Source of the DNA: a virus
Lineage: Duplodnaviria > Heunggongvirae > Uroviricota > Caudoviricetes
Virus record (IMG/VR): IMGVR_UViG_3300028422_000701
Reading direction: 5' to 3' (one strand)
DNA length: 44,396 nucleotides
Numbering within the stretch: the stretch's first letter is position 1; every line of letters starts with the position of its first letter. This document shows, in pieces, positions 393 through 43,000 of this stretch. The notes under the pieces are model-generated. The model saw only the letters and a list, made by a program, of their open reading frames with translations. It was not told where the DNA came from and ran no database searches. The position numbers were made by a program, and so were the translations under genes.

Positions 393-404
393 TATACATT
401 CCCC

Positions 405-650
405 CTAAATAGTATTAACATATATAACACCATTTTCAATATTTCCATTTTTAGTTTGTATGGTAGTATTATATGCATATACTTCAGTTAAATTTTCAAT
501 TTCAAAACAATAGGCAATAGCCTGTGTATAAACATCAAATTGTAAATAACATTCTGTGTCATTGTTTTCAAGTACAATATATGCTATGTCTATTTTAGTG
601 ATGTCTGTAAATTTTAAACGATTTCTTGACATACTATCAACTCCAAACAA
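405..650 (-). CDS. small tail-tip region hypothetical protein
   Basis: ORF packed between fibre genes; likely start is ATG 632 with GGAG RBS. Confidence 0.6.
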   Translation of the reverse strand: MFGVDSMSRNRLKFTDITKIDIAYIVLENNDTECYLQFDVYTQAIAYCFEIENLTEVYAYNTTIQTKNGNIENGVIYVNTI

Positions 651-1407: not shown

Positions 1408-1419
1408 AATATTCCTCCT

Positions 1420-3627: not shown

Positions 3628-3628
3628 A

Positions 3629-4534: not shown

Positions 4535-4535
4535 A

Positions 4536-7500
4536 TTATGACATCTCCCATCTTATTGTATCTTCAATAGCTTGGTTAGTTAAAACATTTTTAATTTTGT
4601 TTGTACTAGTTGAAGTATTAAATGTATTGTTATTAGTTATGTTAACTGACTTATTATTTTGTGTTGTTGTGCCTTGGTTGTTATCACTATCAGTTACTTG
4701 GTTGTTATTATATGGAGTTAATGATGTACCTAAGCTAGCGTTAGCATTAAGCTCTACATCAGCCATAGTGTTTAAATCGTTTAAAACTCCTTGTAATCCC
4801 TTAGTCATTGTTTTACTTACATTAGTTAATTGTTGGTCAAAACCTACTCCAATTCCTTGTGCTAGGTATTTACCAATTTGGTCTCTCATAACTCTTGAAG
4901 GTGATTTAATACCAAAGAATTTTTTTAACCCGTCTGTAATATCACTACCAAAACCTTTTATTTTATCAATAACCCAGTCTTTCATAGATTTAATACCATT
5001 CCATAAACCTTTAACTAAGTTTACACCAATGTCTCCAATACCACTTAAACCTTCACCAATTCCTTTAATTAATTTTACAGTAAGCTCTCCAGCTTTTACT
5101 AATAGGTCAGGAATTGATTTAATGAACCCTACTGCTAGGTTTCCAACTAATTGAATACCCATAACAATAAATTCAGGTATTTTACTTGCAAGTAAAGCAA
5201 GTATTCCAACTACAAGTTGTAACACAGCTACGAGTAATTGTGGTAAAGCTTGTAATAAACCTCCGGCAAGTGCAACTACTAATTTAATTGCAGCTTCAAC
5301 TAATAAAGGTAAATTATCAATAAGGGCAGTAATTAAAGCGTCTAGTAATTGTAATGTAGCATCTATAATTAATGGTAAATTATCTATCATTGCCTGCATT
5401 AATGTAGTCATTAATGTAATCATTGCGTCTATAAGTATAGGTAAATTATCTATTAATGTATTAAATATTGTAATTATTAAATTAATTACAGCATCTATTA
5501 TTGTAGGTAAATTGTCAATTAGTGCTTGAGCTAAGCCCATTATTAATTCAAGTCCAGCTTGTAATATTAAAGGTAAATTGTCGACTAACGTTTTTACAAT
5601 GTTGTTTAATATTGAAATAACTGACTTAACAATTAATGGCATATTATCAATAAGCGCTTTTCCAAGAGCTTTTATTATAAGTAAACCAGCCTTAATTATG
5701 TCAGGTAAAACTTTAACAAGTGAATTTATAACAGTAGTTATACCATTAATTAATACAGGTATTAAGTCAGGAATAGCGTCAGCTAAACCTTGTGCAAGAG
5801 CAACTAATATTCTTCCTCCTGCTTCTATTATAACAGGGAATAGTTGTGTAATAACACTAATAAATGTTCCAAATATTGTTGTAATAGTAGAAACTATTAG
5901 TGGAAGGTTATCAACTAATGCGTCAGTTACTAGTTTAAATATTTCTATTGCAGTACTTACTAATGTAGGTAAGGCAGTGTTTATTATATCAAGTATTTGT
6001 GGTATAATAGTTGCAAATGAATTAGTAAATTCTGTAATAACTGCAGGTAACTTTTCTGTTAATGTAGTCATTGTTGTTAATAAATTTGTAATAAAATTAT
6101 TAACGGCAGTTTTAGAATTTTCTAATAATTGTGTAACATTGAATTGTTTATTAGAGTTTAGGATTGCTAAGAAAGCACCAACACCCGTAGTAGCACCAGT
6201 TGCAGCTAAAGCTAAATTCATTATGCTACTTACTGCACCTTTTATTACATTACCACCTATAGATAAAATTCCTTTACCTATTTTTGCAAATCCATCCCCA
6301 ACTGCAGATAATGATTTTTGTAATGCACTTCCAGTAGCAGAAGCTATACTACTAAATATAGAAGGTAATTTCGCAACCCCACTTTTTAATAAATTTGCAG
6401 CTCCTGTTGTAGCATTTGTTAAACCAACTCTTAATTTGTTAGTTAACGATGTACCAACGTCTATTGCTTTATCTTTTAAAAGTGATAAGCCTCCACCAAC
6501 TACTAATTTAACGTTCATTTGTAAATTTTTAAGTGAATTAATTACCCCACCATTACTTTCAATACTATCTCTAAGTAATGACAAACCTCCGCCAATAACC
6601 ATTTTTGCACTGTCACGAAGATCTTGAAGAGCATATATTGGTCCGCCACTCTTTTTAATTCCATCCGATAAGGATTTAAAACTATTAGTTAAAAATGAAA
6701 TAGGTTTACTATCTGTAAACTTAGTCCATAAGTCTTGGGCTGCATTTTGAACTGTTTTAAATGGTGAAGCTAATGTTCCTAAAGCAGTGTTTAATTTATA
6801 AACCCAGTTGTAAGTACCATCAGTATTTAACATAACATTAATAAAGTTTTTAAATTTACCTTCAGCATTGTCAATACCACTATTTAGTACCCCTTGTGTT
6901 TTAGTCCAAGAAGAACTTAATTTTGTACTTACAGCTCCCGATAAATTATTAATAGTGTCTGTAAAGAAACCTGTTTTCTTAGTTGTGTTTTCTATACCTT
7001 CAGTTATAGGAGCGATTACATCTGCTATTCTTGTAAGTAAAGGTACTATTTGTTGTATATTGTTTTGCATAGTAGTGGCATTTTTTTCTGCATTTTTTGT
7101 GCCATTACTTGTTACTTGGAACATATCTCTTATGTTATCAGATAATAATCCAAATTTTGTAATTACACCACCAACTATTTTTATAATAGGTCCAATAGCT
7201 ATTGCTATACCTAATAAAGCAACAATATTACCCTTAGTTAATAGTTTAAAATTTTCAGTTAAGGCAGTTAAGTTTCTAGTATTTGTTAACGCCTCTGCAT
7301 CTGCTTCAGCCCCAAGTTGTTTATTTTGGTTTATTTTTTCTTGTGTCTCATTTATTTGTGAATTAATATCAGCAAGTTCTTTTGCTTTTTGTGCAGCAGT
7401 GTAAGAATCACTAACATCAGTTTCCATTATTTTTGATCTTTGTTCTGTTAATTTATTTAAAGATGTTTGTGCTGCATTTTCTAATTTTTTGTATAAACTA

Positions 7501-8978
7501 GATTCTTGAGCACATTTTAATATTGTTTGTTCTAAACGTAATTTTTCTACTGCGGAATCATTACCTTCAGCTTGAGCATTAACAATTTCCTGTTCAATAT
7601 CTGAAAGACGTTTTTGTTTATCATTTATTCCTGTAATAGTATTATACGTTTCTGTTAATTTGCTATTGAAGTTTTTAGTTAAACCAGCCATACTTCCTAC
7701 TGTATCAAATAATGCTTCAACCGATTCATTACAGTAATCTAATATGCCTCCAAAACTAGTGAAAGCTTCTTTAAAATCATCTAGTCCAGCAGGTAAATAG
7801 TTAAACCAGTTTAATGCATCTATTAATTTTCTTACTGCTGGTTCTGCGATTACTTCAACATAATCATATATATTTTGAGCAGCTGTTTCAATTGAAGATT
7901 GTAATATAGTCATTGCCCCACTTAAACCAGTAAGTAAAGCATTTTCCATACGTTCAGCTGCACCATAACTTTCATCCATTAAGACTATAAAATCTTGAAA
8001 TGATAAGTTAGTGTCGTCTGTAGTATCCCCTACACTTTGGATTAATGATAACATAGGTGTAATAGCATTTGTAGTAAAAATTGCCTTTAAAGCAGCATTC
8101 TTTTCCTCATCAGTTAATCCATTTAATTTAGTTGCAAGTTCCGTAACAATAGTAGATAAACTTTTAAATTTACCATCACTATCATAAGCACTGAACCCCA
8201 TTTTTTCCATTGCTTCTCTAGCACCAGATGTAGGAGCAGATAAACTAATTAAAGCTTGTCTTAAACCACGTCCTGCTAAACCAGCATTTAACCCACGGTT
8301 TGAAACGTAAGCTAATGCGGCAGCAACTTCATTGAATTCAACACCTAAGTTACTAGCAACAGAACCTGTAAATTTCATTGCTTCTGCAATATCAGTAACG
8401 TCTGCGTTTGAACTAGCAGCGGCTGTTGCTAAAACGTTGATTGCGTCTGATAAACTACTTATTTTTACTTCAACACCATCAATAGTTTTAGTTACGTAAG
8501 TGTCTGCACTTTTACCAAATTGGTATAATACGGCAGTTGCAGTTGCAGCAGCTTCTTCCATACTTTGACCACTTATTGTAGCTAAAGATGTTACTGCTTC
8601 AATACTACTTAATACTTGGTCAACATTTAAACCTGCTTTTGATAATTCAGCCATACCTTGTGCAACTTCTGTTGATGTTTTTGCCGTAGCAGCACCAACT
8701 TCTTTTGCTTTTTGGGTTAATCTATCCATTTCTTCAGTAGTAGCATTTGTAACACCTTTAACGTTGTTCATAGCTGTTTCAAAGTTTCTACCATAAGCTA
8801 TAATAGCTCCACCTGCAGCTAATAAAGGTATACTTACTGCATTAGTAAGTAAACTACCGAAGTTAGTTACCGCAACACCGAATTTTGTTACTATACCTTG
8901 GGCTTTTGTAAACCCAGTTTCTAATCCACTAACATCCGCAGTTAAGGCAACTACTAATTCTTCTATTTGTTTATCCAT
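4536..8978 (-). CDS. tail tape measure protein (TP901-like)
   Basis: 1480 aa; N-terminal FETAMNNVKGVT...EVAQGMAELSKAG core, amphipathic LIDNLP repeats, C-terminal FFGIKSPSRVMRDQIG. Confidence 0.95.
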   Translation of the reverse strand: MDKQIEELVVALTADVSGLETGFTKAQGIVTKFGVAVTNFGSLLTNAVSIPLLAAGGAIIAYGRNFETAMNNVKGVTNATTEEMDRLTQKAKEVGAATAKTSTEVAQGMAELSKAGLNVDQVLSSIEAVTSLATISGQSMEEAAATATAVLYQFGKSADTYVTKTIDGVEVKISSLSDAINVLATAAASSNADVTDIAEAMKFTGSVASNLGVEFNEVAAALAYVSNRGLNAGLAGRGLRQALISLSAPTSGAREAMEKMGFSAYDSDGKFKSLSTIVTELATKLNGLTDEEKNAALKAIFTTNAITPMLSLIQSVGDTTDDTNLSFQDFIVLMDESYGAAERMENALLTGLSGAMTILQSSIETAAQNIYDYVEVIAEPAVRKLIDALNWFNYLPAGLDDFKEAFTSFGGILDYCNESVEALFDTVGSMAGLTKNFNSKLTETYNTITGINDKQKRLSDIEQEIVNAQAEGNDSAVEKLRLEQTILKCAQESSLYKKLENAAQTSLNKLTEQRSKIMETDVSDSYTAAQKAKELADINSQINETQEKINQNKQLGAEADAEALTNTRNLTALTENFKLLTKGNIVALLGIAIAIGPIIKIVGGVITKFGLLSDNIRDMFQVTSNGTKNAEKNATTMQNNIQQIVPLLTRIADVIAPITEGIENTTKKTGFFTDTINNLSGAVSTKLSSSWTKTQGVLNSGIDNAEGKFKNFINVMLNTDGTYNWVYKLNTALGTLASPFKTVQNAAQDLWTKFTDSKPISFLTNSFKSLSDGIKKSGGPIYALQDLRDSAKMVIGGGLSLLRDSIESNGGVINSLKNLQMNVKLVVGGGLSLLKDKAIDVGTSLTNKLRVGLTNATTGAANLLKSGVAKLPSIFSSIASATGSALQKSLSAVGDGFAKIGKGILSIGGNVIKGAVSSIMNLALAATGATTGVGAFLAILNSNKQFNVTQLLENSKTAVNNFITNLLTTMTTLTEKLPAVITEFTNSFATIIPQILDIINTALPTLVSTAIEIFKLVTDALVDNLPLIVSTITTIFGTFISVITQLFPVIIEAGGRILVALAQGLADAIPDLIPVLINGITTVINSLVKVLPDIIKAGLLIIKALGKALIDNMPLIVKSVISILNNIVKTLVDNLPLILQAGLELIMGLAQALIDNLPTIIDAVINLIITIFNTLIDNLPILIDAMITLMTTLMQAMIDNLPLIIDATLQLLDALITALIDNLPLLVEAAIKLVVALAGGLLQALPQLLVAVLQLVVGILALLASKIPEFIVMGIQLVGNLAVGFIKSIPDLLVKAGELTVKLIKGIGEGLSGIGDIGVNLVKGLWNGIKSMKDWVIDKIKGFGSDITDGLKKFFGIKSPSRVMRDQIGKYLAQGIGVGFDQQLTNVSKTMTKGLQGVLNDLNTMADVELNANASLGTSLTPYNNNQVTDSDNNQGTTTQNNKSVNITNNNTFNTSTSTNKIKNVLTNQAIEDTIRWEMS

Positions 8979-9006
8979 TTATAATGTTCACCCCCGTGAT
9001 TATTAG

Positions 9007-9318
9007 TTACATTTGTGCTAGGTCAGCACCTTTAACATTACTTCCACCAGAAGTACTGTTTGTTGTTTTGTTATTGTTTTTATTAAGTGCTTTTTTCCAT
9101 TCTTCAAAACTCAATTTAGTTTGAGACTTTATGTACATCTCAAATAGTTTTTCATCATGTACTTTTTCGTAGGCTTTAACTGTTTTTATAGCCCCTATTT
9201 CAACAGGAGTGTCATATATAAAATCTACGTTACCCCCATAACGCATATTTAATGTATCTTCTATATTGTACCAACCAATCTTCTCTTCAAAGCCTAAATA
9301 CGTGAGAAGAATTTGGTA
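9007..9318 (-). CDS. tail assembly chaperone frameshift extension (gpGT-like)
   Basis: the -1 frame is open from the GGGTTTT heptamer (9324-9318) through the 79-aa ORF 9007-9246. Confidence 0.8.
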   Translation of the reverse strand, partial: YQILLTYLGFEEKIGWYNIEDTLNMRYGGNVDFIYDTPVEIGAIKTVKAYEKVHDEKLFEMYIKSQTKLSFEEWKKALNKNNNKTTNSTSGGSNVKGADLAQM

Positions 9319-9824
9319 AAACCCGATTGTGTAAATATCGCTTGTAAAGCACCTACTGCTTCATCCATATCAAAGTCTAATACTTGTTCTTGTGTATAAC
9401 CAATTAAGAAATAAGACATAAATTCTGCAACTATATCAAACTTAAATGCAACTAAGTTAACAAGTTGGTATAATAATATAACAAGTTCATCGTTTTTTTC
9501 GTTATTCTTATTATAATGTTCTTTTACAGCTTGTCCTACTTTTGTAACATCATTGTCGTTGTCTAAATATAATTGTTGTATTTGTTCCTTAGTAAAGTTA
9601 ACTCTTAAGTATTCTTCTATTTCTGTTGGGTTGCTAAAATTAATTGAAGACTTTCTATTAAAAATTGTTTTTGTTATTTTTTTAAGGTCATCTTCTGTTA
9701 AACCTAGTTTAGTAATAAATTCAGCCATCTTTTGAATATCTCTAAATTTAAACTCCTTAACTTTATATTCTTTTACACTTTCTTGTTCATCTAGTATTTC
9801 TACTATTTCATTTTCTTTTTCCAT
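9294..9824 (-). CDS. tail assembly chaperone (gpG-like)
   Basis: between major tail and tape measure genes; in-frame slippery heptamer near the 3' end. Confidence 0.8.
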   Translation of the reverse strand: MEKENEIVEILDEQESVKEYKVKEFKFRDIQKMAEFITKLGLTEDDLKKITKTIFNRKSSINFSNPTEIEEYLRVNFTKEQIQQLYLDNDNDVTKVGQAVKEHYNKNNEKNDELVILLYQLVNLVAFKFDIVAEFMSYFLIGYTQEQVLDFDMDEAVGALQAIFTQSGFTKFFSRI

Positions 9825-9849
9825 TTTTATTTTCCTCCCTTATAATAAT

Positions 9850-9882
9850 AAAAATAGGGAAACGAGTTCAACCCGTTCCCCC
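9850..9882 (-). terminator. intrinsic terminator after major tail gene
   Basis: GGGAACG/CGTTTCCC stem followed by a T run on the minus strand. Confidence 0.65.
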
Positions 9883-9896
9883 GTGTGGTAGTTTAA

Positions 9897-10802
9897 TTAA
9901 GCAGCAGTTGTAAAGTTAATTACTACTGTATCTGTAGTTTGTCCATAAATGTCTGCTAAACTATATACTAATGTATATTGTGCAGTACCAGTTAAGGCTT
10001 CACTTGGTGTAATAGTTACTATCTTATATGTATTGTCTAATGTTAATGATGTTGCTATTTTACCAACTCCATCTTTTAATAAGAATACATTGTTTGCAGT
10101 AACATAACCACTATTAATTGCATTTGTTGATGTTAATGTAATAGCAGCAGTTTTACTTACGTCAGTAGCAGCATCAGCAACACTTGAAGTAATAGCAAAT
10201 GCTGGAGCAGCTTCAATTACATAAGTGAACCAAGTAGTTCCTTCTCCTGCGTATCCGTCTGATTCTTCATCAGCAGTTGCCATAATAATGTTTTCTTGGC
10301 GTCCGTTACCGAAGTTTTTAACATAATTTGTTGCAACGAATTGAGCTTTAATAGTTCCAGTTTGGAAGTTAACACTATCGTTTTTAGTTTCATTTGAACT
10401 TTCTGGTTCACTGAATCTACCTTTAAATAGTTTAACGTAACTGTAAGTACCATTGTCATATAGTTGTCTAAACATAATTGCAACATAAGGTGCATTGTAT
10501 GTACTTGTTCTATATTTAGTAGCTCCTGATTCAGCATAACCTAATAACTCTGTTAATAAGTCGTCAGGTAAGCTATCCTTTTCAATTTCTACGTCTACAG
10601 TTCCAACAACTGAGTATGAAATTGATGGTTTATTATCAGTGTATAATGTTTCAGTACTAACATTAGGAGTTATAGTAATTTTAATTAAGCCAGGAACTGC
10701 ATAAGGTGTTTCATATGAAATTGTACTTTCAGTATCTGTTATTAATTTTGCTATGTATAATTTATCTAATCCTATACGTACTTTACTTGTGTTTTTTGCC
10801 AT
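9897..10802 (-). CDS. major tail protein (phi13-like) with C-terminal Ig-like domain
   Basis: VRIGLDKLYIA, ETLYTDN, YVKLFKGRFSEPE motifs; C-terminal ITLTSTNAIN...VTITPSEAL...YTLV is Ig-like. Confidence 0.9.
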   Translation of the reverse strand: MAKNTSKVRIGLDKLYIAKLITDTESTISYETPYAVPGLIKITITPNVSTETLYTDNKPSISYSVVGTVDVEIEKDSLPDDLLTELLGYAESGATKYRTSTYNAPYVAIMFRQLYDNGTYSYVKLFKGRFSEPESSNETKNDSVNFQTGTIKAQFVATNYVKNFGNGRQENIIMATADEESDGYAGEGTTWFTYVIEAAPAFAITSSVADAATDVSKTAAITLTSTNAINSGYVTANNVFLLKDGVGKIATSLTLDNTYKIVTITPSEALTGTAQYTLVYSLADIYGQTTDTVVINFTTAA

Positions 10803-10819
10803 AAATATCTTTCCTCCTT

Positions 10820-11230
10820 TTAATTATTTATATTTACAGGTCTAGTATAGTACAATGAAGTACTATATATTTTTTCTTGTTGTTTGTTTTTATCAGATGA
10901 ATTGTCCTTATTATATCCGAGATTTATCATAACTACATCTAATGCTTCAGTTATTTGAAGTAATGTAATAGTACTAGTCATACTACTAGGTAACCATATA
11001 TCCAGCTCGAAAGTAACTAATTCCTTAACAGGTTTGTTATCTCTAAAAAATATATTTTTTCTTCCTTCAATGTTGTAAGTTAGTCTAGGAAAGTAACTAG
11101 TATCTTCGGTGTTATTATAAAGTTCAATGTCTGGAAAATATTCAGTTATTTTAGTTGTATCGTTACTAAAAAATGTCATTAAATCTGTATCAGTAGTTAA
11201 TGCCTTATACAATTCTTGTTTTATATTCAT
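10820..11230 (-). CDS. tail terminator protein
   Basis: position before major tail; FPRLTY...FELDIW pattern. Confidence 0.7.
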   Translation of the reverse strand: MNIKQELYKALTTDTDLMTFFSNDTTKITEYFPDIELYNNTEDTSYFPRLTYNIEGRKNIFFRDNKPVKELVTFELDIWLPSSMTSTITLLQITEALDVVMINLGYNKDNSSDKNKQQEKIYSTSLYYTRPVNINN

Positions 11231-11694
11231 TAATATTGTATATTAGTTATATATTCAATAGCAACCTTACGTAATCTTTTAGAATTTTTATAAACAGCTT
11301 GATAAAAGTAATATGTAGGACGTTGTCCGTAGGTAAACCAAAAGTCTCCATATCGGTCCATATAAACCCAACCATTAGGTCTTCCAACAGAAATAGTATT
11401 ATATATACCAGTACCATATTCAGGGTAACTAGCGTATTTAGAAGTGGAACCAACTTCTACTTTTAAAGCAGCCTTATTGGTTTTTCTATATATACTTTTG
11501 TATAAATCTCCACTATTAACTAAATCGTAGGATTTTATATTTGCTTTAACATCTTTCTTAATATTAGCCCCAAGTTCAACTAATGAATCATAAGTTGCAT
11601 TAGAAATTTTATTAAGGGTTCTATTAAGTACATATTTCATTGCTGTACTTGAATCTTGCCCAGATTCAGTTCTAAAGGAAACATTTGCTGACAT
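11230..11694 (-). CDS. HK97 gp10-like tail completion protein
   Basis: SGDLYKSI...EVGSTSKYASYPEYGTG...GQRPTYYFYQA motifs. Confidence 0.85.
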   Translation of the reverse strand: MSANVSFRTESGQDSSTAMKYVLNRTLNKISNATYDSLVELGANIKKDVKANIKSYDLVNSGDLYKSIYRKTNKAALKVEVGSTSKYASYPEYGTGIYNTISVGRPNGWVYMDRYGDFWFTYGQRPTYYFYQAVYKNSKRLRKVAIEYITNIQY

Positions 11695-12032
11695 TATTTA
11701 ACCATTGGTTCTAATGTACATTCCATAGTTGTTTTAAACCATGAAGCAATTTGTTTTATAACGTAAAGTTTATTATTAATAATAACTCTATCTCCTTCTT
11801 TAATATGTTCGTTGTAGTCTAAATACAAAGTGTTTATTATCCCAGTTGAAACTGTTCCAAATTCATCGTTTGTAATATAACCACTTTCCACTTGGAAATC
11901 ACAAGGTACAGTAGGGTAAACAACTATGTAATCACCTTTACTTAAAGTTCCCTCACTGTTTTGTGTAGGGGTACTTGCTTGTAATATATCACAAGTGTTA
12001 GTATAAACTAAAATACTATCTATACCGTACAT
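11694..12032 (-). CDS. head closure/head-tail adaptor
   Basis: synteny; IKEGDRVIINNKLYVI pattern. Confidence 0.7.
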   Translation of the reverse strand: MYGIDSILVYTNTCDILQASTPTQNSEGTLSKGDYIVVYPTVPCDFQVESGYITNDEFGTVSTGIINTLYLDYNEHIKEGDRVIINNKLYVIKQIASWFKTTMECTLEPMVK

Positions 12033-12034
12033 AT

Positions 12035-12298
12035 TTATTCCTCAGGTAATAGGCTTTTTAATTCTTCTACTGACATTGACTTATCATAATTTATATGTAA
12101 TTCATTTAATTTTGTCTGAATATCTTTTTTGGATGGTTTAACATCCTTTTTTATTTCATATTTAGTAATACAACCAAGTTGTAAATAAACTTTTGCAGTT
12201 TTTTCATCCAACATAATTGTACTTCCTTTTGTGTATACTTTTGTAGGTTCATCAATTTTTGTAATTGACATATCTTGTACAAATATATATTCTGTCAT
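12035..12298 (-). CDS. small head-tail region protein with HeH/LEM-like C-terminus
   Basis: KKDIQTKLNELHINYDKSMSVEELKSLL; synteny. Confidence 0.55.
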   Translation of the reverse strand: MTEYIFVQDMSITKIDEPTKVYTKGSTIMLDEKTAKVYLQLGCITKYEIKKDVKPSKKDIQTKLNELHINYDKSMSVEELKSLLPEE

Positions 12299-12309
12299 TC
12301 TATCACTCC

Positions 12310-12939
12310 TTATATGTATAAATTTTTATAAGTTTCAATAACTAACTTATCGTCATTACTTAAGTTACTATCATTATATGTAACACTAATTTTTCCTTGA
12401 CGTAATGCAGATATACCGTAATGTTTTCTATTTCTTACCATTTTAGCAATAGTTAAAGTTATAACTATGTCTTCTAAATCATAAGGTAACGTTCTAGGGT
12501 TTTCCTGTGTTGCGTCCTTAGGTAGTACATAACCATAAGTATATGTAACTTTATAACATAAACGTTTACCCACGCTATCCTCAGTTAATCCCGCTATATA
12601 ACCGCAGTTGTCCCACATGCTAGTACCATATATAAGACCTTTTTTAAATAATTTTAAGTCATCTAAGTAATCTGTAATTAAACTATCATTATGATAAATA
12701 CTTTCTACACTTAGTATAGGTCTATTGGATGTAATTAAATACTGTCCACCGCCGTTTAAATATTCAGTAGTAGTACCTTTACATAAATTGTAACCTATTT
12801 TTGATTGTATAAAATCACTGACTGCATTTATTTGTCGTATAATTTGGTTATCTTTACTTGTATCAGTATCAGCAATGCCTAGTTCATCTTTTATTGTTTC
12901 AACAGTTGTTAATGCATTGTTGGCTAATGTTTCATTCAT
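12310..12939 (-). CDS. head-tail connector (gp6-like)
   Basis: LTTVETIKDELGI, VTYTYGY, LPYDLE motifs; synteny. Confidence 0.8.
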   Translation of the reverse strand: MNETLANNALTTVETIKDELGIADTDTSKDNQIIRQINAVSDFIQSKIGYNLCKGTTTEYLNGGGQYLITSNRPILSVESIYHNDSLITDYLDDLKLFKKGLIYGTSMWDNCGYIAGLTEDSVGKRLCYKVTYTYGYVLPKDATQENPRTLPYDLEDIVITLTIAKMVRNRKHYGISALRQGKISVTYNDSNLSNDDKLVIETYKNLYI

Positions 12940-12977
12940 TGCTTCACTCTCCTTTATACATAAAGCTAGTGGAGGAA

Positions 12978-13157
12978 TTATTTTCCACTTAATTTAGTTT
13001 TTATTTGTTCTATAATAAGAAGTTTAGAACTAACGTTATTTAAAATAATTCCTTTATCCTTAGCATATTTTATAAGTTGTTTTTTAGTTAATTTTGAAAG
13101 TTCTAAAGTGTTAATAATTCTATTACTTTCAATACCCTGTATAGTTCTTGTTATCAT
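12978..13157 (-). CDS. 59-aa Rho-N/HeH-like small protein
   Basis: hand-translated MITRTIQG...LSKLTKKQLIKYAKDKGIIL; weak RBS. Confidence 0.45.
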   Translation of the reverse strand: MITRTIQGIESNRIINTLELSKLTKKQLIKYAKDKGIILNNVSSKLLIIEQIKTKLSGK

Positions 13158-13172
13158 ATAGGTTAAAATTTA

Positions 13173-13502
13173 CTAAACTTTATCGTTGTAAATTTTGTCC
13201 CCTAATCCAAGAGCTACTAATGTTGCATCAGTTGCAGTAAACTTAACATATTTACCTAAACTTCTAACGTTTAAGTCGTATGTTAATTCTACAGTTCCTG
13301 CAGTTGCATTTTCGTATGAAATTGTGTCGTAAGTTTTGTAAGTTCCACCAACAGTGTCACAGTATGAAATTACAACTGAACCTGTTTTTGTAGTAGCAAC
13401 AGTAATAAGTAACATAGCTGATTCGTAGTTACTAACATCTTCTGCTACACCGCTTTCAATTACTTTTAAAGCGTGAGTTAATTTTGAATAATTCATTTTC
13501 AT
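13173..13502 (-). CDS. capsid-associated hypothetical protein (possible decoration protein)
   Basis: first gene after major capsid, AGGAGG RBS. Confidence 0.5.
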   Translation of the reverse strand: MKMNYSKLTHALKVIESGVAEDVSNYESAMLLITVATTKTGSVVISYCDTVGGTYKTYDTISYENATAGTVELTYDLNVRSLGKYVKFTATDATLVALGLGDKIYNDKV

Positions 13503-13552
13503 TTTTATTCCTCCTTATTTGTTATTATATGTATGAATTTTATAATAGTAAT

Positions 13553-13580
13553 ATAGGAGTGGGTAACCCCACTCTCTATA
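13553..13580 (-). terminator. hairpin/terminator after major capsid gene
   Basis: GAGTGGG/CCCACTC stem. Confidence 0.55.
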
Positions 13581-13599
13581 CTTTTAATTAAATTATTGA

Positions 13600-14787
13600 T
13601 TAGGCAACTGTGTAGAAATTAAATACTACGAATGCTTCACCACGAGCTAATTTAATGTCGTGTTTCATGATACCTCTAAATACAGTAAAGTCTGATGTAA
13701 AGGCATTAATAACTTTTCCGTCAGTGTCTGTAAATGTAGTTGATTTGTCTAAGTCAAATTCAAAGTTGTATTCTTCTCCAACCCATACTTCATTCCATTT
13801 TCCTAAGAAAACGTCAGTCTTAACATTGTTAGTAGTATCACTTGGTATTTGGTTACTTACTAAACATTTACGTCCTAGTAATGTACCCATAGTTGTTAAT
13901 TCAGTATTAACATGACCTTCGTCTGCAACAACTTCGTTAACTAATGCTAACCAAGCGTCCCAGTTAATTGCAAATCCAATTGAAGCGTCGTTTACATTGA
14001 TATTTTTCTTACCAAGTTTTGCTAACATTTCATATAATGCAGCTCTTGTAATAACAGCAGTTTTAGCAGTGTATTGAATACCGTCAGTATTTCTAATACC
14101 TAATGGTTGGTCTTCTCCACCAGTACCATATAATAATGCGTAGTCCATAGTTTGAACCATAGATTCCATCATTGTATCTCTTAAAATAACGTCTGCTTGG
14201 TATGTGTTAGTTCTTAGTAAGTCATTTGATATAGCAGTTAAACTCATTAATTTTTTAGAACTTAATTTAATACGTCCAATTTTAATGTCTGAGAAGTCTG
14301 CAGCTCCACCTTCTGGAATATATTGAGCAGTTAATTTACCGATTAGTTTGTTAACTGATAAGTTTCCTCTTGGCATTGGAACAATTTTAGCTCCCATAGC
14401 TTTAACTACTGTTAAGTTGTAAAGTAATTCAATGAAATCAGCACTAAATTCTTCTGGAATTAAGAATGATCCTTGGTTACCTTCCATTAAAGCTTTTTCA
14501 GTAGCTTCGATTTCTTTAACAAATGATGTGTCTTTTGCGTAAGAATCTTTTAAATACTTAACAGCAAATGTTGATGGGTTAGCTCCTTTTGCAGCGGCTT
14601 CTTGAGCAAGTATTTGTGCTTTAACGCAACGTGCGAATGCGATACCTTTCATATCACGATCTTTGTTTTGTTCAATTGATTTAGTAGTTTCTAATAGCAT
14701 GTCAGCATATTTTGATTCTAATGATTTCATGTTATCAGTAACTGTTGATTTAATTTCGTTTAGTAATTCTTCTTTATTTATGTCCAT
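13600..14787 (-). CDS. major capsid protein, HK97 fold
   Basis: GSFLIPEEFS, LYGTGGEDQPLGI, TLLGRKCLVS, VFLGKW motifs; N-terminal delta-like coiled coil. Confidence 0.95.
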   Translation of the reverse strand: MDINKEELLNEIKSTVTDNMKSLESKYADMLLETTKSIEQNKDRDMKGIAFARCVKAQILAQEAAAKGANPSTFAVKYLKDSYAKDTSFVKEIEATEKALMEGNQGSFLIPEEFSADFIELLYNLTVVKAMGAKIVPMPRGNLSVNKLIGKLTAQYIPEGGAADFSDIKIGRIKLSSKKLMSLTAISNDLLRTNTYQADVILRDTMMESMVQTMDYALLYGTGGEDQPLGIRNTDGIQYTAKTAVITRAALYEMLAKLGKKNINVNDASIGFAINWDAWLALVNEVVADEGHVNTELTTMGTLLGRKCLVSNQIPSDTTNNVKTDVFLGKWNEVWVGEEYNFEFDLDKSTTFTDTDGKVINAFTSDFTVFRGIMKHDIKLARGEAFVVFNFYTVA

Positions 14788-14809
14788 AATTTTTCCTCCT
14801 TATAAATTA

Positions 14810-15727
14810 TTACTTTAAAAAGTTTTGTATTGTTTCTACGATAGCACTTTTAACACTTTCAATGTCTAAAGTTTTGTCTTCCGTAGGTTCTTCTACTACT
14901 GGTTCTACAGTAGGTTCTTCAGTAGGTTGTACTACTGGTTCCTCATTTGAATCTTCTTGCACATTTTCAGATTCTATAGGTTGTGGGTTTACCACATCTG
15001 TAACTTGCTCTGGGTCTTTATCTTTATCTTCTTGTTCAGAAGATTCAATTGATTCTAATGATTTTGAAGCTAATGTTTTAATTTCTACTAAAGCATCTTT
15101 TAATTCTTTAACTTTTGCCATTGCTTCATCTGTATCTATGTTAACTTTTATGTTAATGTCTTGATTTTTCATTGTATTGTCCTCCTTATCTTGTTCTTCG
15201 CTTTCTTTTAACATTTTTTTGTAAGCACTTAAATCGTTATCACTAACAATACCCTTACTATATGCTAATTGTAAAGCTTCTGAATTTGCAGGAACTGGTA
15301 CGGCTGATAATTCAAGTAATTCTTGTCTGTCACTTATAAAAGTATCCTCGTCAAAGTGCCATTCTTTAATCATAAAACCAACACTTGTAGCATTTAAAAA
15401 TCCACCTTTGTATAAGTTATATACAGTTTTTGCAAATTCATATTCTTCAGTTGCAAATTGAATGTCAAATACTAAGGCTTTTTTAGTTGGGTCAATACCT
15501 ACGTTAGTAGCTTTACCTATTGGTAATGAATGACTATCGTGTGCCCATAAAAATACAGGGTTTTTTAAATAATTTTCAAGTTCCCATCCATCAACTTTAA
15601 CTATATCTCCTTGACGATCTTTTGTTTCTGTTGAACCAATAAAACGTAATGTTCTTTCGTCTAATTCTTTTATTTTAAAGTTGTATTCTGATGATTTGGT
15701 CTTTAAATTGTTTTCCTTGTTTTTCAT
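14810..15727 (-). CDS. HK97-family prohead protease
   Basis: DRQGDIV, NPVFLWAHD, GFLNATSVGF, LLELSAVPVPAN motifs. Confidence 0.95.
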   Translation of the reverse strand: MKNKENNLKTKSSEYNFKIKELDERTLRFIGSTETKDRQGDIVKVDGWELENYLKNPVFLWAHDSHSLPIGKATNVGIDPTKKALVFDIQFATEEYEFAKTVYNLYKGGFLNATSVGFMIKEWHFDEDTFISDRQELLELSAVPVPANSEALQLAYSKGIVSDNDLSAYKKMLKESEEQDKEDNTMKNQDINIKVNIDTDEAMAKVKELKDALVEIKTLASKSLESIESSEQEDKDKDPEQVTDVVNPQPIESENVQEDSNEEPVVQPTEEPTVEPVVEEPTEDKTLDIESVKSAIVETIQNFLK

Positions 15728-17111
15728 CTATACCTTCACCTCCTTGGTTGTTTTTATTACTGTCGTCGTTTGGATCTTTTGGATCTGTGTCATTAGAATC
15801 GTCAGTATTTTGTTGATCATCACTTTGATCGTCTATATTGTCTGTTGCAGGATCCTCAGTATCCTCTGCTCCAGTAATAAACTGTTTTGTTTTTATATTA
15901 TAAAATTGTTTTTTAGTAGGTAATATTAATGCATCACCCATTTCACAGTCAGCAGCTAAAGGTTGTCTTCCTGTTTCAATTCTATATTCGTTTATGGTAA
16001 TTCCTCCACGGTCTAATCCTTCGTTTGCACGCTTAAGTTCAAATTCTTTATCTTCTATTGTTTTACGTTCAAATCTAAAAACTAAATTTTCTGAATTTTT
16101 GTATAATGATAATAATTGGTGAGTAATTGCTTCTTCAAATTCTACAAATTGTGGTTCAAGTACCTCATTTATATAAATGTCACGAGCAGCAACAACTGTT
16201 GCTTTATTACTATTTTCAACATTACCCATTATTTCAGGTGGTATACCAAAATGTTGCATTGCTAAGTCTCTATAAAATTTTCTTGATTCAATAAAGTCCA
16301 TTTCTTTGTTAGTACTATTTAATACGTGTACTTTTGCTTCCCAGTTTAAGAAAGCAGCTTTATTACTATTTGTAAGTCCCCCAAATTTTTGAACCCATCT
16401 TTTTTCAAGGTTTTCAATATTATCGTCACTTGTTCCATCTGGAGCAGTAACTATAATGTTTGGTGTTGCATCGTTAAAAAAGAATCTTTTAGCAAATTTT
16501 GCCATGTATTCATCTGTTTCAAGTTCATCACCAATTTGTTCCACCCTACCAATACCACGTCCAATAGGATTTAGTGGGTCTGGATTTTTACGGTAAAACA
16601 TATCTTCTTCATTTACTTCAATACGGTTAGAACTACTTTTTAATTCTACTATGTAAGTGTTTCTTTCCTTTTTAGGTAATTCTTTTATCCAATCAGGTGG
16701 TAAAAACCATAAAAATGTAGGTTCACCGCTTTTATTTTTTTCTATTAAAGCAAAACTTTCTCCACGTACTAAAAAATGTACTTGAGATAAGTATAAATCA
16801 GCACTACCTGTTGTATGATAAACATTATTTGGTTGTTCATACAACATTTTAATTAATGGGTGGTTAGGTACTAATGTTAATTGTCCATTTCTAGATTTTC
16901 TATATACGTTACCACGTTTTGTACTTATATCACGGGACATCTTAGTAACTGGAGCCATACGTGGGCTTGTGTTATAAGTCTTTAACCAGTCTTCACCGTT
17001 TCTTTTTGGTGGTTCCCCACGTAAAGGTTGCATAATATCTCCTAAATATTTTTTAGTAAACCTTTTTTCTACTGTTGGTACACCAAAGAGTTTTAAAAAT
17101 GTATTATTCAT
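15675..17111 (-). CDS. HK97-family portal protein
   Basis: GESFALI, FFFNDATP, FGIPPEIMG, GITINEYR motifs; acidic tail. Confidence 0.95.
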   Translation of the reverse strand: MNNTFLKLFGVPTVEKRFTKKYLGDIMQPLRGEPPKRNGEDWLKTYNTSPRMAPVTKMSRDISTKRGNVYRKSRNGQLTLVPNHPLIKMLYEQPNNVYHTTGSADLYLSQVHFLVRGESFALIEKNKSGEPTFLWFLPPDWIKELPKKERNTYIVELKSSSNRIEVNEEDMFYRKNPDPLNPIGRGIGRVEQIGDELETDEYMAKFAKRFFFNDATPNIIVTAPDGTSDDNIENLEKRWVQKFGGLTNSNKAAFLNWEAKVHVLNSTNKEMDFIESRKFYRDLAMQHFGIPPEIMGNVENSNKATVVAARDIYINEVLEPQFVEFEEAITHQLLSLYKNSENLVFRFERKTIEDKEFELKRANEGLDRGGITINEYRIETGRQPLAADCEMGDALILPTKKQFYNIKTKQFITGAEDTEDPATDNIDDQSDDQQNTDDSNDTDPKDPNDDSNKNNQGGEGIDEKQGKQFKDQIIRIQL

Positions 17112-17295
17112 TTCTTTCCTCCTTATTTAGAAGATTCCTTTCACTTTTATCATAAGTAACTAATATGGTTTTATAAGCATCAATGTATGCTTTAACCTTA
17201 GCTTCTTCTATTTTATTTAATTGTTCTGTAAGTAATTTTTGTTCCCATCTTTGTATAGATGTTAATAAGTTTAACCTAAAATTATCATTTTTCAT
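17104..17295 (-). CDS. hypothetical protein
   Basis: ORF between terL and portal with overlapping stop/start. Confidence 0.55.
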   Translation of the reverse strand: MKNDNFRLNLLTSIQRWEQKLLTEQLNKIEEAKVKAYIDAYKTILVTYDKSERNLLNKEERNE

Positions 17296-17316
17296 ATTAT
17301 TTTAAATACCAATAAA

Positions 17317-18897
17317 CTAAAATATTTTTAGTTCTTTTGATATAGCTCCTTTCGTAACATATATTTGTCTACATCCTTGACTGAATGAGTCGCAGAAGTC
17401 ATCGTGTTGTACGTAAGGAAATCTAGTTAAATCATTTAAAGCATCTTCTACCCAATAGTAACGTGTTATCATATCGCTTGTGTCAATACTAGGTATGTAA
17501 ACATTTCCAGCTTCCACATAAGGTGAAATACTATTCATTCTACTATATTTATCCTCTTCAGGAGTAATTGGTAAAATACCCGGAATTGTACTTTGTAATG
17601 TTTCTATAATGGCAGGTCCATTTGCTTTATCTTCCACTAATATTACTATTGGAATATTAGCTCCATATTCAATAAATATTTTCTGCCATTTCTCTCTCAT
17701 ATCGTCAACTGCGTCTAATGTATCTAAGAATCCAACTTGTTTTTTAAAGTAATCTACTAAATACGTTGTAACACCGTTTGTTAATAACACGGCACAAGCA
17801 ACGTAGTCAGCAGTTTGTTTACCTTTAAAACTCATGTCCCAACTTTGGTATAATTTCCATTCTTTTGGAGCAAAACCAGTATTATAAAAAGGTAATACTT
17901 TCCATTTTTTAAACCAAAAACGTTGTAACAAACTTCCCCCCTCAGGAGCCGGATCTTGTAGGTACTGTGACTCGTAAGTTCTTGTACCTTGTTCTTTTTT
18001 AGTTTGTTCTATCCAACTTTTTGGCATTCTTTCTTTCCATAAAGATTCGTTGGCTCTAAATAAATATTGTTTCTTAGTAATTGGTCCAGTATACACAATA
18101 TCATGGTCAGTTGTTACTGGTAAAACTATAAACTTGTAAAAGTCTTTATAGTTCTCTATAATAAATCCACTTGCGTCATTGTAATGTAATCTTTGTTGTA
18201 TATTTACAATAACACCTGTAGAATAATTATTTAAACGTGATGGTAATGTCTGTCTAATAAAGTCAATAACTGATTTTCTATCTGCTTCTGACTCAGCCAT
18301 TCTTGGGTTTTGAATATCATCTAGGAATATCATATCCCCACCTTTTCCGGTTAATGTACCACCGATAGAGGTACTAAACATACTACCTTGTGCAGTGTTT
18401 TCAAAAAAGGTTTTGGTATTTTGTTCTTCCTTTAGTTTAACTATATGACCCCAGTTTGCTTGATACCAGTCACTTTCAATTATTTCTCTTCTTTTTTTGT
18501 TTAATTCCATTGATAGGTCACTACTGTACGAAACTGTAATAAATTTTTTACTTGGACAATGTATCCAAACCCAACAAGGAAATATAACATTAATAAACAA
18601 ACTTTTCATTGTACGTGGAGGAATGTTAATATTAACACGGTAAACAAGTTCCGTTTCACAAATTGATTCAACTTCTTCTTTACTATATCCTATTGCTTCT
18701 CCTAAATCACGTAAAACTAATAGCACTAATTCTTCTTCTAAATAGTGTAAGTGCCAGTTGTCACTAAATTCAGTTCCTGGCTCTATAACTTTCCAGGCCT
18801 GTCTTGTAAATTCTAACAAATTCTTTTCTGCTAAAATCTTTTCTATTACTTCAATTCCACCATTATCTTTTAAATACTGAACTAAATCTTTATCCAT
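17317..18897 (-). CDS. terL: terminase large subunit
   Basis: Walker A-like INIPPRTMKS, Walker B IFLDDIQNP, nuclease SWDMSFK, EDKANG and HDDFCDS. Confidence 0.95.
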   Translation of the reverse strand: MDKDLVQYLKDNGGIEVIEKILAEKNLLEFTRQAWKVIEPGTEFSDNWHLHYLEEELVLLVLRDLGEAIGYSKEEVESICETELVYRVNINIPPRTMKSLFINVIFPCWVWIHCPSKKFITVSYSSDLSMELNKKRREIIESDWYQANWGHIVKLKEEQNTKTFFENTAQGSMFSTSIGGTLTGKGGDMIFLDDIQNPRMAESEADRKSVIDFIRQTLPSRLNNYSTGVIVNIQQRLHYNDASGFIIENYKDFYKFIVLPVTTDHDIVYTGPITKKQYLFRANESLWKERMPKSWIEQTKKEQGTRTYESQYLQDPAPEGGSLLQRFWFKKWKVLPFYNTGFAPKEWKLYQSWDMSFKGKQTADYVACAVLLTNGVTTYLVDYFKKQVGFLDTLDAVDDMREKWQKIFIEYGANIPIVILVEDKANGPAIIETLQSTIPGILPITPEEDKYSRMNSISPYVEAGNVYIPSIDTSDMITRYYWVEDALNDLTRFPYVQHDDFCDSFSQGCRQIYVTKGAISKELKIF

Positions 18898-19496
18898 TAA
18901 CTACCCATTTCATCTTTAGCTTCATTTTTTAAAGTTATAAGTAGTGTTTTTAAATCGTCAGTAGATAATTGTTGTAATTGTTGTACATTTGTGTTTATGG
19001 TAGTTGTTTTTGCTACCTCAGTTTTATTTTTCCATTGTTCTGAACGAACATTAGTAAGTGCAAATTTTAACATTGCTCCATTTCCACGTGCATGTTTTCT
19101 AAGTTCTACAATTTCACCTGTTTTCTTATTAACATCTTCTTCTGTATAATCATAACCTTTGGCTTCTTGATACATACTTGTTTCAAGACTGTCCGCTAAT
19201 AGTTCATTTCCAAAATCATATGCTTCTTTTAATTCAGGTATTGTGTTTTTGTAGTGTAAAAATATACTAGAACTAATATCTAATATTTTTGCTATCTGTG
19301 CAACATTCATACCATTTTCACGATATTTAGTAATGTCTTGTAGATAAGGTCTTACCTTGCGTTCATAAGTTATAGTGTAAGGATTAGCATTCTTAGGATC
19401 TAACGAAGGTGCTAAGTCTAAGTTTACATTAATAAGTTCCCCACTATCAGGATCTATAACTTCAGTTGTAATAAAATCTTTAGGATTTCTTTTCAT
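18897..19496 (-). CDS. terS: terminase small subunit
   Basis: upstream of terL; HTH (GMNVAQIAKILDIS), GYDYTEE and FALTNVRSEQWKNK motifs. Confidence 0.85.
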   Translation of the reverse strand: MKRNPKDFITTEVIDPDSGELINVNLDLAPSLDPKNANPYTITYERKVRPYLQDITKYRENGMNVAQIAKILDISSSIFLHYKNTIPELKEAYDFGNELLADSLETSMYQEAKGYDYTEEDVNKKTGEIVELRKHARGNGAMLKFALTNVRSEQWKNKTEVAKTTTINTNVQQLQQLSTDDLKTLLITLKNEAKDEMGS

Positions 19497-19553
19497 TTAC
19501 TCACCCTCCTAGATAGGTAAGCGTAATATGGGTTATATTTTATTTATACATAC

Positions 19554-42150: not shown

Positions 42151-42444
42151 ATGACAAAATATTATAAGGATACCATTGAATTAAATAGTAGTAAGATACT
42201 ACCACTTAATCAAGTTCTTTCGCTAGTAGGTTTAGAACCTAAGTATAATGACGAAGTTAAAATTTCAGCCAAACACATAAATTATTTTCTTGACAACATG
42301 AACAAAAAGTTCAATACAAACTATAAAATGGACGTGCTTAATAATAGACAACACGAATGGGTATGGAATAATATAAAAGTAGAAATTGTAAGTATAACGA
42401 ATAGTTATACCCAATGTACAGTTTTTCTTAAAATAGTGTTGTAA
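42151..42444 (+). CDS. hypothetical protein
   Basis: ORF track. Confidence 0.55.
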   Translation: MTKYYKDTIELNSSKILPLNQVLSLVGLEPKYNDEVKISAKHINYFLDNMNKKFNTNYKMDVLNNRQHEWVWNNIKVEIVSITNSYTQCTVFLKIVL

Positions 42445-42467
42445 AATACGTTATTTTGTGGTATACT
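42439..42467 (+). promoter_or_regulatory. promoter of the candidate sRNA
   Basis: TTGTAA-17-TATACT with extended TG. Confidence 0.75.
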
Positions 42468-42473
42468 TATAAT

Positions 42474-42605
42474 GTACTTGTTTAATGGGTACAAAATGGT
42501 TGTAGTATAGACCAATACACATACTGAGTGAATTTAATACCTACCTTTACTTTAATAGATAAACTCAGTACTAACCCTATATATAATGTATAGGGTTTAT
42601 TTTTT
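42474..42605 (+). ncRNA. candidate anti-Shine-Dalgarno small RNA
   Basis: own promoter and terminator, no RBS-led ORF; stem TACTGAGT/ACTCAGTA encloses TACCTACCTTTACTTT, the exact reverse complement of 29762-29777. Confidence 0.7.
42573..42605 (+). terminator. intrinsic terminator
   Basis: AACCCTATA/TATAGGGTT stem plus T run. Confidence 0.8.
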
Positions 42606-42703
42606 CACTAAAAAATACAACTTTTCATAAAAAAATGTTGTAATTTCTAATATTATGGTGTATACTATTAATGTAAATAAAAAAAGAAGGAGGTTTAATA
42701 GTT

Positions 42704-43000
42704 ATGCAAAATAAAATAAATAGAGTTAACAGTGAAGTGGTAACTGTTAGAATGGGGTCAAATGTTAAAAATTGTGTACTTACAATTAAGAACAGAATTT
42801 ATAATTTAGGACTAGGTTACCAAAGACCAAGTTGTGCTAATGTTATTACAGTAGACAACAAAACAAGAAAATTAATTGAAAACACTCAAAAACAATATTT
42901 AGATGAAATGAAAGATCAATATAATTTATCTGACGCAGATGTAACTTATATTAAAAATCATCTAAATGTTCACAACAGTAAATACTTAAGAGTGAAATAA
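42704..43000 (+). CDS. hypothetical protein
   Basis: GGAGG RBS; promoter at 42638-42666. Confidence 0.7.
   Translation: MQNKINRVNSEVVTVRMGSNVKNCVLTIKNRIYNLGLGYQRPSCANVITVDNKTRKLIENTQKQYLDEMKDQYNLSDADVTYIKNHLNVHNSKYLRVK

Follow-up and report, generated by a model that had tools for sequence, protein, structure and literature searches.

Trans-acting small RNAs (sRNAs) of Firmicutes, e.g., RsaE/RoxS and RNAIII of S. aureus, present C/U-rich loops that pair with Shine-Dalgarno (SD) sequences and block translation. The c4 antisense RNA of the phages P1 and P7 acts on the icd-ant mRNA; it is cut out of the operon transcript that also contains its target, from a position just upstream of the latter, and it uses two loops. 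DicF, which is encoded by the Qin prophage, is an enterobacterial, Hfq-dependent RNA that targets host genes such as ftsZ. The RNAs sar of P22 and OOP of lambda and the antitoxin RNAs of type I systems have their genes opposite or next to those of their targets. For prophages of enterobacteria, trans-acting regulatory RNAs are well documented. In large lytic-type phages of low-GC hosts they are, to our knowledge, scarcely known, and we know of few that target early genes of the same phage from a distant locus.

The stretch of DNA that was analyzed here (the window, 44,396 nt) forms the last 44.4 kb of an IMG/VR virus record that is 108,396 bp long and has a terminal overlap of 144 bp. The phage is uncultured. 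It has a G+C content of about 30% and a siphovirus-type genome with genes for an HK97-type capsid and a tape measure protein. The nearest isolate is Bacillus phage Flasso, at a capsid identity of only 33%, and the host is probably a low-GC Gram-positive bacterium. Toward its end the window contains a short unit (42439-42605), for which a first-pass annotation had proposed a small RNA that is antisense to the ribosome-binding site of a distant, recoded gene (29785-30219, in the following 29785). The reading put forward here is that the unit specifies a trans-acting anti-SD RNA that originated from an inverted start region and would repress 29785 strongly and other genes with GGTAGG-type SD sequences weakly. 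We give this reading about an even chance of being correct.

Comparison with Known Regulatory RNAs

The features of trans-encoded sRNAs that were found at the locus are a promoter and a terminator with no SD-led ORF between them, complementarity to a separate locus, and predicted accessibility of both pairing sites, with one outstanding target. As in the cases of RsaE/RoxS and RNAIII, the predicted RNA would be a discrete molecule of about 100-150 nt with its own promoter and intrinsic terminator, here read from sequence signals alone. It also shares with them an open, pyrimidine-rich loop that is complementary to the SD sequences of distant mRNAs, several candidate targets with a common motif, and occlusion of the 30S subunit as the expected effect. 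In contrast to these RNAs, it is encoded by a phage and seems to be aimed at the phage's own genes, and a single perfect match of 16 nt takes the place of short C-rich seeds. There is no relation to them in sequence or in Rfam, and the targeted motif is a GA-free SD variant that is private to a small set of genes.

With c4 of P1/P7 the unit has in common that a phage RNA is predicted to pair in trans, via a loop, with the ribosome-binding region of a phage gene and to repress its translation. However, the unit has one loop and is a separate unit downstream of its target, at a distance of 12.8 kb. Membership in the c4 type was rejected because the unit is separate and downstream, has a single loop, and matches no Rfam family of phage antisense RNAs. 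Like DicF and other trans-acting sRNAs of prophages, it is an RNA of phage origin that would pair across the start region of a distantly encoded gene, a pairing that ranges from imperfect to perfect in this group; unlike for DicF, the best predicted targets are early genes of the phage itself, in a host that is probably Gram-positive and low in GC.

The proposed antisense occlusion of a ribosome-binding site is shared with P22 sar, lambda OOP, and the type I antitoxins, and two of the secondary candidate targets, 30304 (49 aa) and 33825 (52 aa), encode small hydrophobic peptides, as type I toxins are. The gene arrangement is different, because the unit is located 8.7-12.8 kb from every candidate target, and on this point the earlier comparison with type I antitoxins fails. 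A type I toxin-antitoxin system was rejected for two reasons, i.e., the nearest candidate (33825) is 8.7 kb and the best (29785) 12.8 kb away, and the best target is not a small (<60 aa) hydrophobic peptide but a basic protein of 144 aa. A cis-antisense RNA of the sar/OOP type was rejected as well, because unit and target are on the same strand and 12.8 kb apart. The kind of mechanism, i.e., SD occlusion by a loop-displayed antisense sequence, is known, and the unit itself is best placed outside every described family.

The Putative Transcription Unit and Its Predicted Fold

The features of the locus are listed in Table 1. The promoter P1, which had been claimed on the basis of its TTGTAA and TATACT hexamers at a distance of 17 nt, is present, and a TGG just upstream of the -10 hexamer gives it an extended -10 element. 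It belongs to a promoter family, TTG(T/A)xx-17-TG(n)TATACT, with eight sites in the whole genome. The other seven of the eight are located directly upstream of genes, and the family includes the promoters of the target gene and of the next gene downstream of the unit. The same promoter type was found in a related phage, G001 (TTGTAATTTC...TATAAT). The strong terminator was likewise recovered, with an 11-bp stem plus a U-tract, and it is among the few strong ones in the early region. The promoter family, the recurrence in G001, the terminator, and a hairpin that begins exactly at the predicted +1 are credible transcription signals, and they look real.

Table 1. Positions of the features discussed in the text (window coordinates unless a relative is named; SD, Shine-Dalgarno sequence).
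Feature	Position	Strand	Remarks
Structural genes	1-19,500	minus	
Small genes	from 20,000 onward	+	
Target gene promoter TTGTAT-17-TGGTATACT	29664-29692	+	same family as P1
Predicted primary target site AAAGTAAAGGTAGGTA	29762-29777	+	GA-free SD AGGTAGGT at 29769-29776, 8 nt before ATG
Target gene, 144 aa without Asp/Glu	29785-30219	+	recoded member of a family of phage proteins; located in the GA/TC-free island 29352-30502
Secondary candidate target	30285-30298	+	start region AAAAGGTAGGTGTA of the 49-aa membrane ORF 30304-30453; net -12.2 kcal/mol, rank 5
Secondary candidate target	30452-30470	+	start region TAGTAAAGGGTAGGTAA of a short ORF starting at 30472; net -14.7 kcal/mol, rank 3
Secondary candidate target	33797-33824	+	start region AATTAAAAAAGGTAGGTGTTAA of the 52-aa membrane ORF 33825-33983; duplex -23.0, net -14.9 kcal/mol, rank 2
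Promoter P1	42439-42467	+	-35 TTGTAA 42439-42444, 17-nt spacer, extended -10 TGG-TATACT 42459-42467 (TATACT 42462-42467)
Predicted non-coding transcript, about 132 nt	42474-42605	+	start placed 7 nt after the -10; end is the U-tract of the terminator
5'-terminal hairpin	42474-42492	+	begins at the predicted +1; from the fold, pairing probability about 1
Second small hairpin	42497-42514	+	from the fold
Display hairpin	42522-42570	+	perfect 8-bp stem 42522-42529/42563-42570, followed by a weak inner helix of 5 bp (42532-42536/42556-42560) and an apical loop of 19 nt (42537-42555)
Anti-start-region element TACCTACCTTTACTTT	42538-42553	+	in the apical loop; exact complement of 29762-29777
Intrinsic terminator	42573-42605	+	11-bp stem 42573-42597 with a 3-nt loop, then TATTTTTT
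Promoter P2 (TTGTAA-17-TATACT)	42638-42666	+	just past the terminator; serves the next gene
Neighbour gene, 98 aa, third diverged family paralogue	42704-43000	+	has GAAGGAGGT as a canonical SD; outside the set of predicted targets (gain in cofolding, -1.2 kcal/mol)
GA-free SD sites in relatives	L060 9984-9992; L056 1261-1269; L061 386-394; L062 4020-4030 (minus); L071 5307-5316 (minus)		

Between P1 and the terminator there is no SD-led ORF on the plus strand. The only frames have 4-21 codons and all of them lack an SD, in agreement with the earlier description of about 130 nt without such an ORF, and a peptide encoded on the plus strand inside the unit was rejected for this reason. The Rfam searches at the gathering score and at E <= 10 yielded no credible family (the best sub-threshold match was Hrs12, with 26 bits compared to a cut-off of 70), and a search of the unit for tRNA and tmRNA yielded none.

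The fold of the predicted 132-nt RNA has a minimum free energy (MFE) of -32.0 kcal/mol (z = -2.44 compared to shuffled sequences), and the MFE and centroid folds are identical. The 8-bp stem that had been noted earlier is perfect in both. A 5'-terminal hairpin fits a stable RNA in a Firmicute-type host, and the hairpin at the predicted 5' end of the unit is consistent with such an RNA. The predicted transcripts of promoters of the same family (29699-29747, 30822-30845, and 33796-33845) have AGTTAA(A/T) as their first nucleotides and a hairpin at the 5' end, as is the case for the RNA unit. In a Firmicute-type host, this would fit a protection of the RNA against 5' exonuclease.

The -35 box of P1 contains the TAA stop codon of the ORF 42151-42444. 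Because of this position, the hairpin of the unit would also be present at the 3' end of the mRNA of the upstream operon, and the 42474-42605 RNA could alternatively be this 3' end.

The Match between the Loop and the Start Region of 29785

The 16-nt perfect antisense match claimed in the first-pass annotation is exact (16/16). Both sequences would be transcribed from the plus strand, and in the window the 16-mer has these two copies only, even at two mismatches (0.11 expected for this word). The complementary stretch spans positions -23 to -8, counted from the first base of the start codon at 29785, and thus includes the SD.

The length of the match alone is a weak argument and insignificant, because 60 block-wise dinucleotide shuffles yielded on average 0.83 16-mers per genome that were complementary to one of 155 start regions. 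In the real genome about 25 independent exact inverted 16-mers are present. Nearly all of them consist of two similar start regions on opposite strands, and the loop of the unit is the only element found that is in the sense orientation of local transcription and away from any gene start. The significance stems instead from the position of the match, which is on the transcribed strand in the apical hairpin loop of a 132-nt orphan unit, and from an extended similarity to other start regions that is described below.

A pure coincidence would mean that an unrelated non-coding spacer happens to carry a 16-mer complementary to a ribosome-binding site, and the roughly 25 inverted 16-mers as well as the shuffling result of 0.83 speak for it. 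However, out of 2 x 108 kb, this match falls into a 19-nt segment of an orphan unit that has 132 nt, the similarity reaches two other start regions past the shared core, and the word carries the rare GGTAGG variant, with ACCTACCT occurring a single time on the plus strand of the whole genome. We consider a coincidence very improbable.

Accessibility and Ranking of the Predicted Targets

A sequestered loop had been named earlier as a possible objection. RNA folding predicted the loop to be open, with a mean unpaired probability of 0.91 for the 16 nt and an opening cost of 0.42 kcal/mol. The target stretch was also predicted to be unpaired in the 5' UTR. It is cheap to open (0.07-0.3 kcal/mol) because the structure of the leader is a 5' hairpin well upstream.

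In a raw duplex scan of the whole genome, which did not include accessibility, 29785 was only about fifth, behind a site in the tape-measure gene and others. The ranking was then redone on start regions with opening energies included. Among 156 start regions (mean net interaction -2.8 kcal/mol, sd 4.6), 29785 was first with -23.0 kcal/mol, and the following ranks were occupied by 33825 (-14.9), 30472 (-14.7), 34524 (-12.6), and 30304 (-12.2 kcal/mol). The gap between the first and the second rank was about 8 kcal/mol, so that a target prediction of the kind suggested earlier, here on start regions, singled out the gene that had been named. The GGTAGG variant is present in four of the five top-ranked start regions. 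Cofolding of the full-length RNA again put 29785 first, and the adjacent gene 42704 gained only -1.2 kcal/mol.

The loop was also compared with the anti-SD of 16S rRNA as a competitor for the same sites, using a Bacillus-type 16S 3' end. At the five variant sites the pairing with 16S had -9.5 to -13.5 kcal/mol, and the pairing with the loop had -17.6 to -23.7 kcal/mol at four sites and -13.8 kcal/mol at 30879. The loop thus outpaired this Bacillus-type anti-SD by 5-13 kcal/mol at four of five variant sites and by 0.3 kcal/mol at 30879. At three canonical sites its advantage over 16S was at most 2.3 kcal/mol, and at two of the three it lost or tied.

The loop is CU-rich and can pair moderately with many SD sites, and the operon that ends at 42444 would have the unit as its 3' end. 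Both features speak for a real sRNA or 3'-UTR element with another job, e.g., as a sponge, as a terminator/insulator module between cassettes, as a stabilizer of the upstream operon mRNA, or in the regulation of host mRNAs; the match to 29785 would then have no part in this job. A perfect match of 16 nt to one start region of the phage is not required for any of these roles, nor is a gap of 8 kcal/mol, and we regard another role as quite unlikely.

The region also contains three tiny hydrophobic ORFs, 30304-30453 (49 aa), 33825-33983 (52 aa), and 33985-34113 (42 aa), two of which have GGTAGG start regions. They could be host-takeover or exclusion peptides.

The Origin of the Loop Sequence

The reverse complement of the loop together with its flanks, CTATTAAAGTAAAGGTAGGTATTAAATTC, matches three start regions. 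The match to the start region of 29785 is the 16/16 described above. With the start region of 33825 (ATTAAA--AAAGGTAGGTGTTAA) 20 of 21 positions are identical with one 2-nt gap, and with the start region of the recoded gene in the relative L060 (TAAAGGT-GGTATTAAATT) 18 of 18 with one gap; in both cases p was <= 0.005 compared to shuffles. In addition, the reverse complement has the form GTAAAGG plus GGTAGGT that is typical for early-gene start regions. GTAAAGG followed by an SD is the form of the start region in 10 genes of this phage, and in the relative L071 GTAA(A)GGTAGGTA likewise serves as a start region. Because of the matches to 33825 and L060 and this form, the loop is best explained as an inverted copy of an early-gene-type start region and not as a chance word.

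Descent from a start region leaves next to no room for coincidence, yet it gives rise to another explanation. The loop may be a functionless remnant, i.e., a rearrangement may have left a short inverted fragment of an early-gene start region in a 3' UTR or non-coding spacer between two cassettes. The complementarity would then be a by-product of descent, and the RNA, if it is produced, would have no regulatory role. This explanation draws on the clear descent of the loop, and it fits that identical 16-mers between start regions are common in this genome, that the early region has a mosaic structure of small cassettes and contains paralogues, and that the unit is conserved in no relative found. 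It does not account for the precise position of the element in the apical loop, with perfect 8-bp arms on either side; we estimate the chance of such a bracketing at well under 1%. Nor does it account for the fact that the element is on the strand that would be transcribed, with a family promoter ahead of it and a terminator behind it that is among the few strong ones. Furthermore, the identity to the target has been kept at 16/16, while both flanks have fully diverged and share nothing with the flanks of the target. A remnant is therefore somewhat unlikely in our judgement, but it is the strongest of the competing explanations.

When the minus strand is read, the sequence has all the hallmarks of the start regions of this phage, and the element could be the ordinary ribosome-binding site of a micro-ORF on that strand (ATG at 42520, 23 codons). 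However, the nearest start codon is 16 nt past the GGT, compared to 7-9 nt in the real genes of the phage, there is no ATG, GTG, or TTG at a proper spacing, and the frame would run into P1 and the end of the plus-strand gene. A minus-strand promoter of the family type is absent, the neighbouring genes and the GC skew are all in plus orientation, and the hairpin is no terminator in that direction. The minus-strand micro-gene was rejected for its wrong spacing between SD and start codon, and its probability is very low.

The Target Gene and Its GA-Free Island

The island that surrounds the target gene contains only four GA/TC steps, and a run of 692 nt has none at all; the longest GA/TC-free run elsewhere in the genome has 127 nt. 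The SD of the target gene, AGGTAGGT, is best read as AGGAGGT turned GA-free. The GGTAGG variant is also present beyond the island, at 30864 and 33808.

DpdA of the phage CAjan modifies G in GA and GGC contexts (PMC7544227). For DpdA of the phage iggy, modification strictly in GA is reported (PMC10484667). In view of these published target motifs the island may be unmodified, and it is plausibly a patch of DNA that escapes deazaguanine modification.

Islands of the same kind are present in related contigs, i.e., at 3194-4464 in G001 (L062), at about 9434-10490 in L060, at about 890-1813 in L056/57 (with a 672-nt run), and at 4741-6685 in L071. Each of them holds Asp/Glu-free genes, usually including a recoded member of the target's protein family. 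The GA-free SD that replaces GGAGG differs from lineage to lineage and is GGTGG, GGGGG, or GGTAGG. Because the lineages use different replacements, the variant is best understood as following from a constraint at the DNA level and not as a conserved private signal.

The family of the target protein has about 13 detectable homologues, and its genes are often present in two to three copies per phage, which are sometimes divergently arranged (L072). The predicted structures of 30879-31262 and of the homologues P0004-P0016 have a disordered basic N-terminus, which is followed by a confident three-helix bundle (pLDDT > 90). Searches with fold and sequence against PDB, Pfam, and PHROGs yielded no match. 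The product of 29785 itself is basic and soluble and is also predicted to be a three-helix bundle. The protein encoded by 42704-43000, directly downstream of the unit, is a diverged paralogue of 29785 and 30879. It has 32% identity to the G001 copy (E = 6e-14) and the conserved C-terminal motif TYIKNHLNVHxSKYL. Since 42704 is a paralogue with a canonical SD, the unit is paired with a canonical-SD version of the same protein of which the RNA would silence the GA-free version.

Distribution in Related Phages

Searches for the locus itself found no relatives. A blastn search with the locus against 50,697 phage records had no match. The exact 16-mer had 46 single, unrelated matches in IMG/VR, none of them with a second copy. 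A scan with the hairpin pattern gave 0 matches in IMG/VR and two chance matches in GC-rich Porphyromonas DNA among 185,579 species genomes. The HTH protein and the 98-aa protein had no relatives in IMG/VR, and the flanking 97-aa and 98-aa proteins were singletons among 5.8 billion proteins, the only matches being the window's own. The terminase led to just two short contigs, with 36% identity. The whole genome of Bacillus phage Flasso lacks a GA-free island, GGTAGG start regions, and an anti-element, but Flasso is too distant for this comparison to carry weight.

Relatives were found via the protein family of the target, namely G001, L056/57, L058/59, L060, L061, L071, and L072. The nearest complete one is G001 (102 kb), with a capsid that is 56% identical. 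Its structural and replication proteins are 40-60% identical to those of the window phage, and its early genes, like those of L071, are not shared except for the target's family. G001 and L071 have GA-free islands and variant start regions, and a search of both for antisense copies of the start regions of their own recoded genes revealed only terminator arms and other start regions. Because the element is missing in these two in spite of their islands, the antisense arrangement does not appear to be conserved in the group. The element would be lineage-specific or young, which argues mildly against an ancient function and is silent on a recent one.

Several observations were made on the promoters and leaders of the family genes in the relatives. 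In G001 (L062 930-1090 and 1900-1950), 1 kb contains at least three copies of a promoter module of about 45 nt (cacatttaccccTTGTAA...TATAAT), two of them as a tandem ahead of the family gene, and tandem promoters are also found ahead of the family copy in L071. A tandem layout like that of P1 and P2 upstream of family genes thus seems to recur, with the intervening terminator and antisense loop only in this window. A homology between the P1 leader of G001 and the inverted loop was rejected, because the similarity was no better than that of shuffled sequences. The leaders of family genes with normal composition open right after the -10 with GTAA(A)GGTGGTA (L058 about 940-960, L072 about 877-905, and L062 about 987-1000). 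SD elements that stabilize mRNAs are known in Bacillus, and this SD-like sequence at the very 5' end is reminiscent of them.

Proposed Mechanism and Biological Meaning

In the proposed mechanism, the unit would be transcribed from its own early-type promoter into a trans-acting antisense RNA of about 130 nt that ends at the intrinsic terminator, and the same RNA would also arise as the 3' end of the upstream operon transcript. The open 19-nt loop of the third hairpin would pair via 16 contiguous bases with the unstructured leader of 29785-30219 and cover its SD, and it would pair more weakly with the other GGTAGG-type start regions, i.e., those of 33825, 30472, and 30304. Pairing would keep the 30S subunit off and lower the translation of 29785 and the GGTAGG genes, while genes with a canonical GGAGG, among them the neighbouring paralogue 42704, would remain largely unaffected. 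We infer the production of the RNA, its binding, the repression by binding, and any timing of these steps from the predictions described above.

Of the initial trans-acting RNA reading, the pairing of the loop with the SD of the recoded gene is the part best supported in silico, and the type I antitoxin arrangement did not hold. The proposed shut-off of the "earliest genes" would depend on an assumed genome end and an assumed order of entry. In addition, the RNA unit and the target gene have promoters of one class, and this common class does not account for a simple early-to-late switch.

A more far-reaching possibility, which we put forward tentatively and would not expect to hold in full, is that the phage runs a private translational channel. 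Early genes with GGTAGG sites around a GA/TC/GC-free island would be shut off by a dedicated complementary RNA, and GGAGG genes, including the paralogue, would be left untouched. This would be an orthogonal SD/anti-SD pair that toggles between a "modification-free" and a normal copy of a protein.

If the loop is merely a scar, the finding is ordinary. If the RNA is real, it gives a simple handle on an odd module, i.e., an island without DpdA target motifs, which has counterparts in at least four related contigs and contains Asp/Glu-free genes in every case. It would mean that this module is actively switched off, and that a no-GA constraint at the level of the DNA has created a distinct class of ribosome-binding sites, which can be selectively addressed by a regulator.
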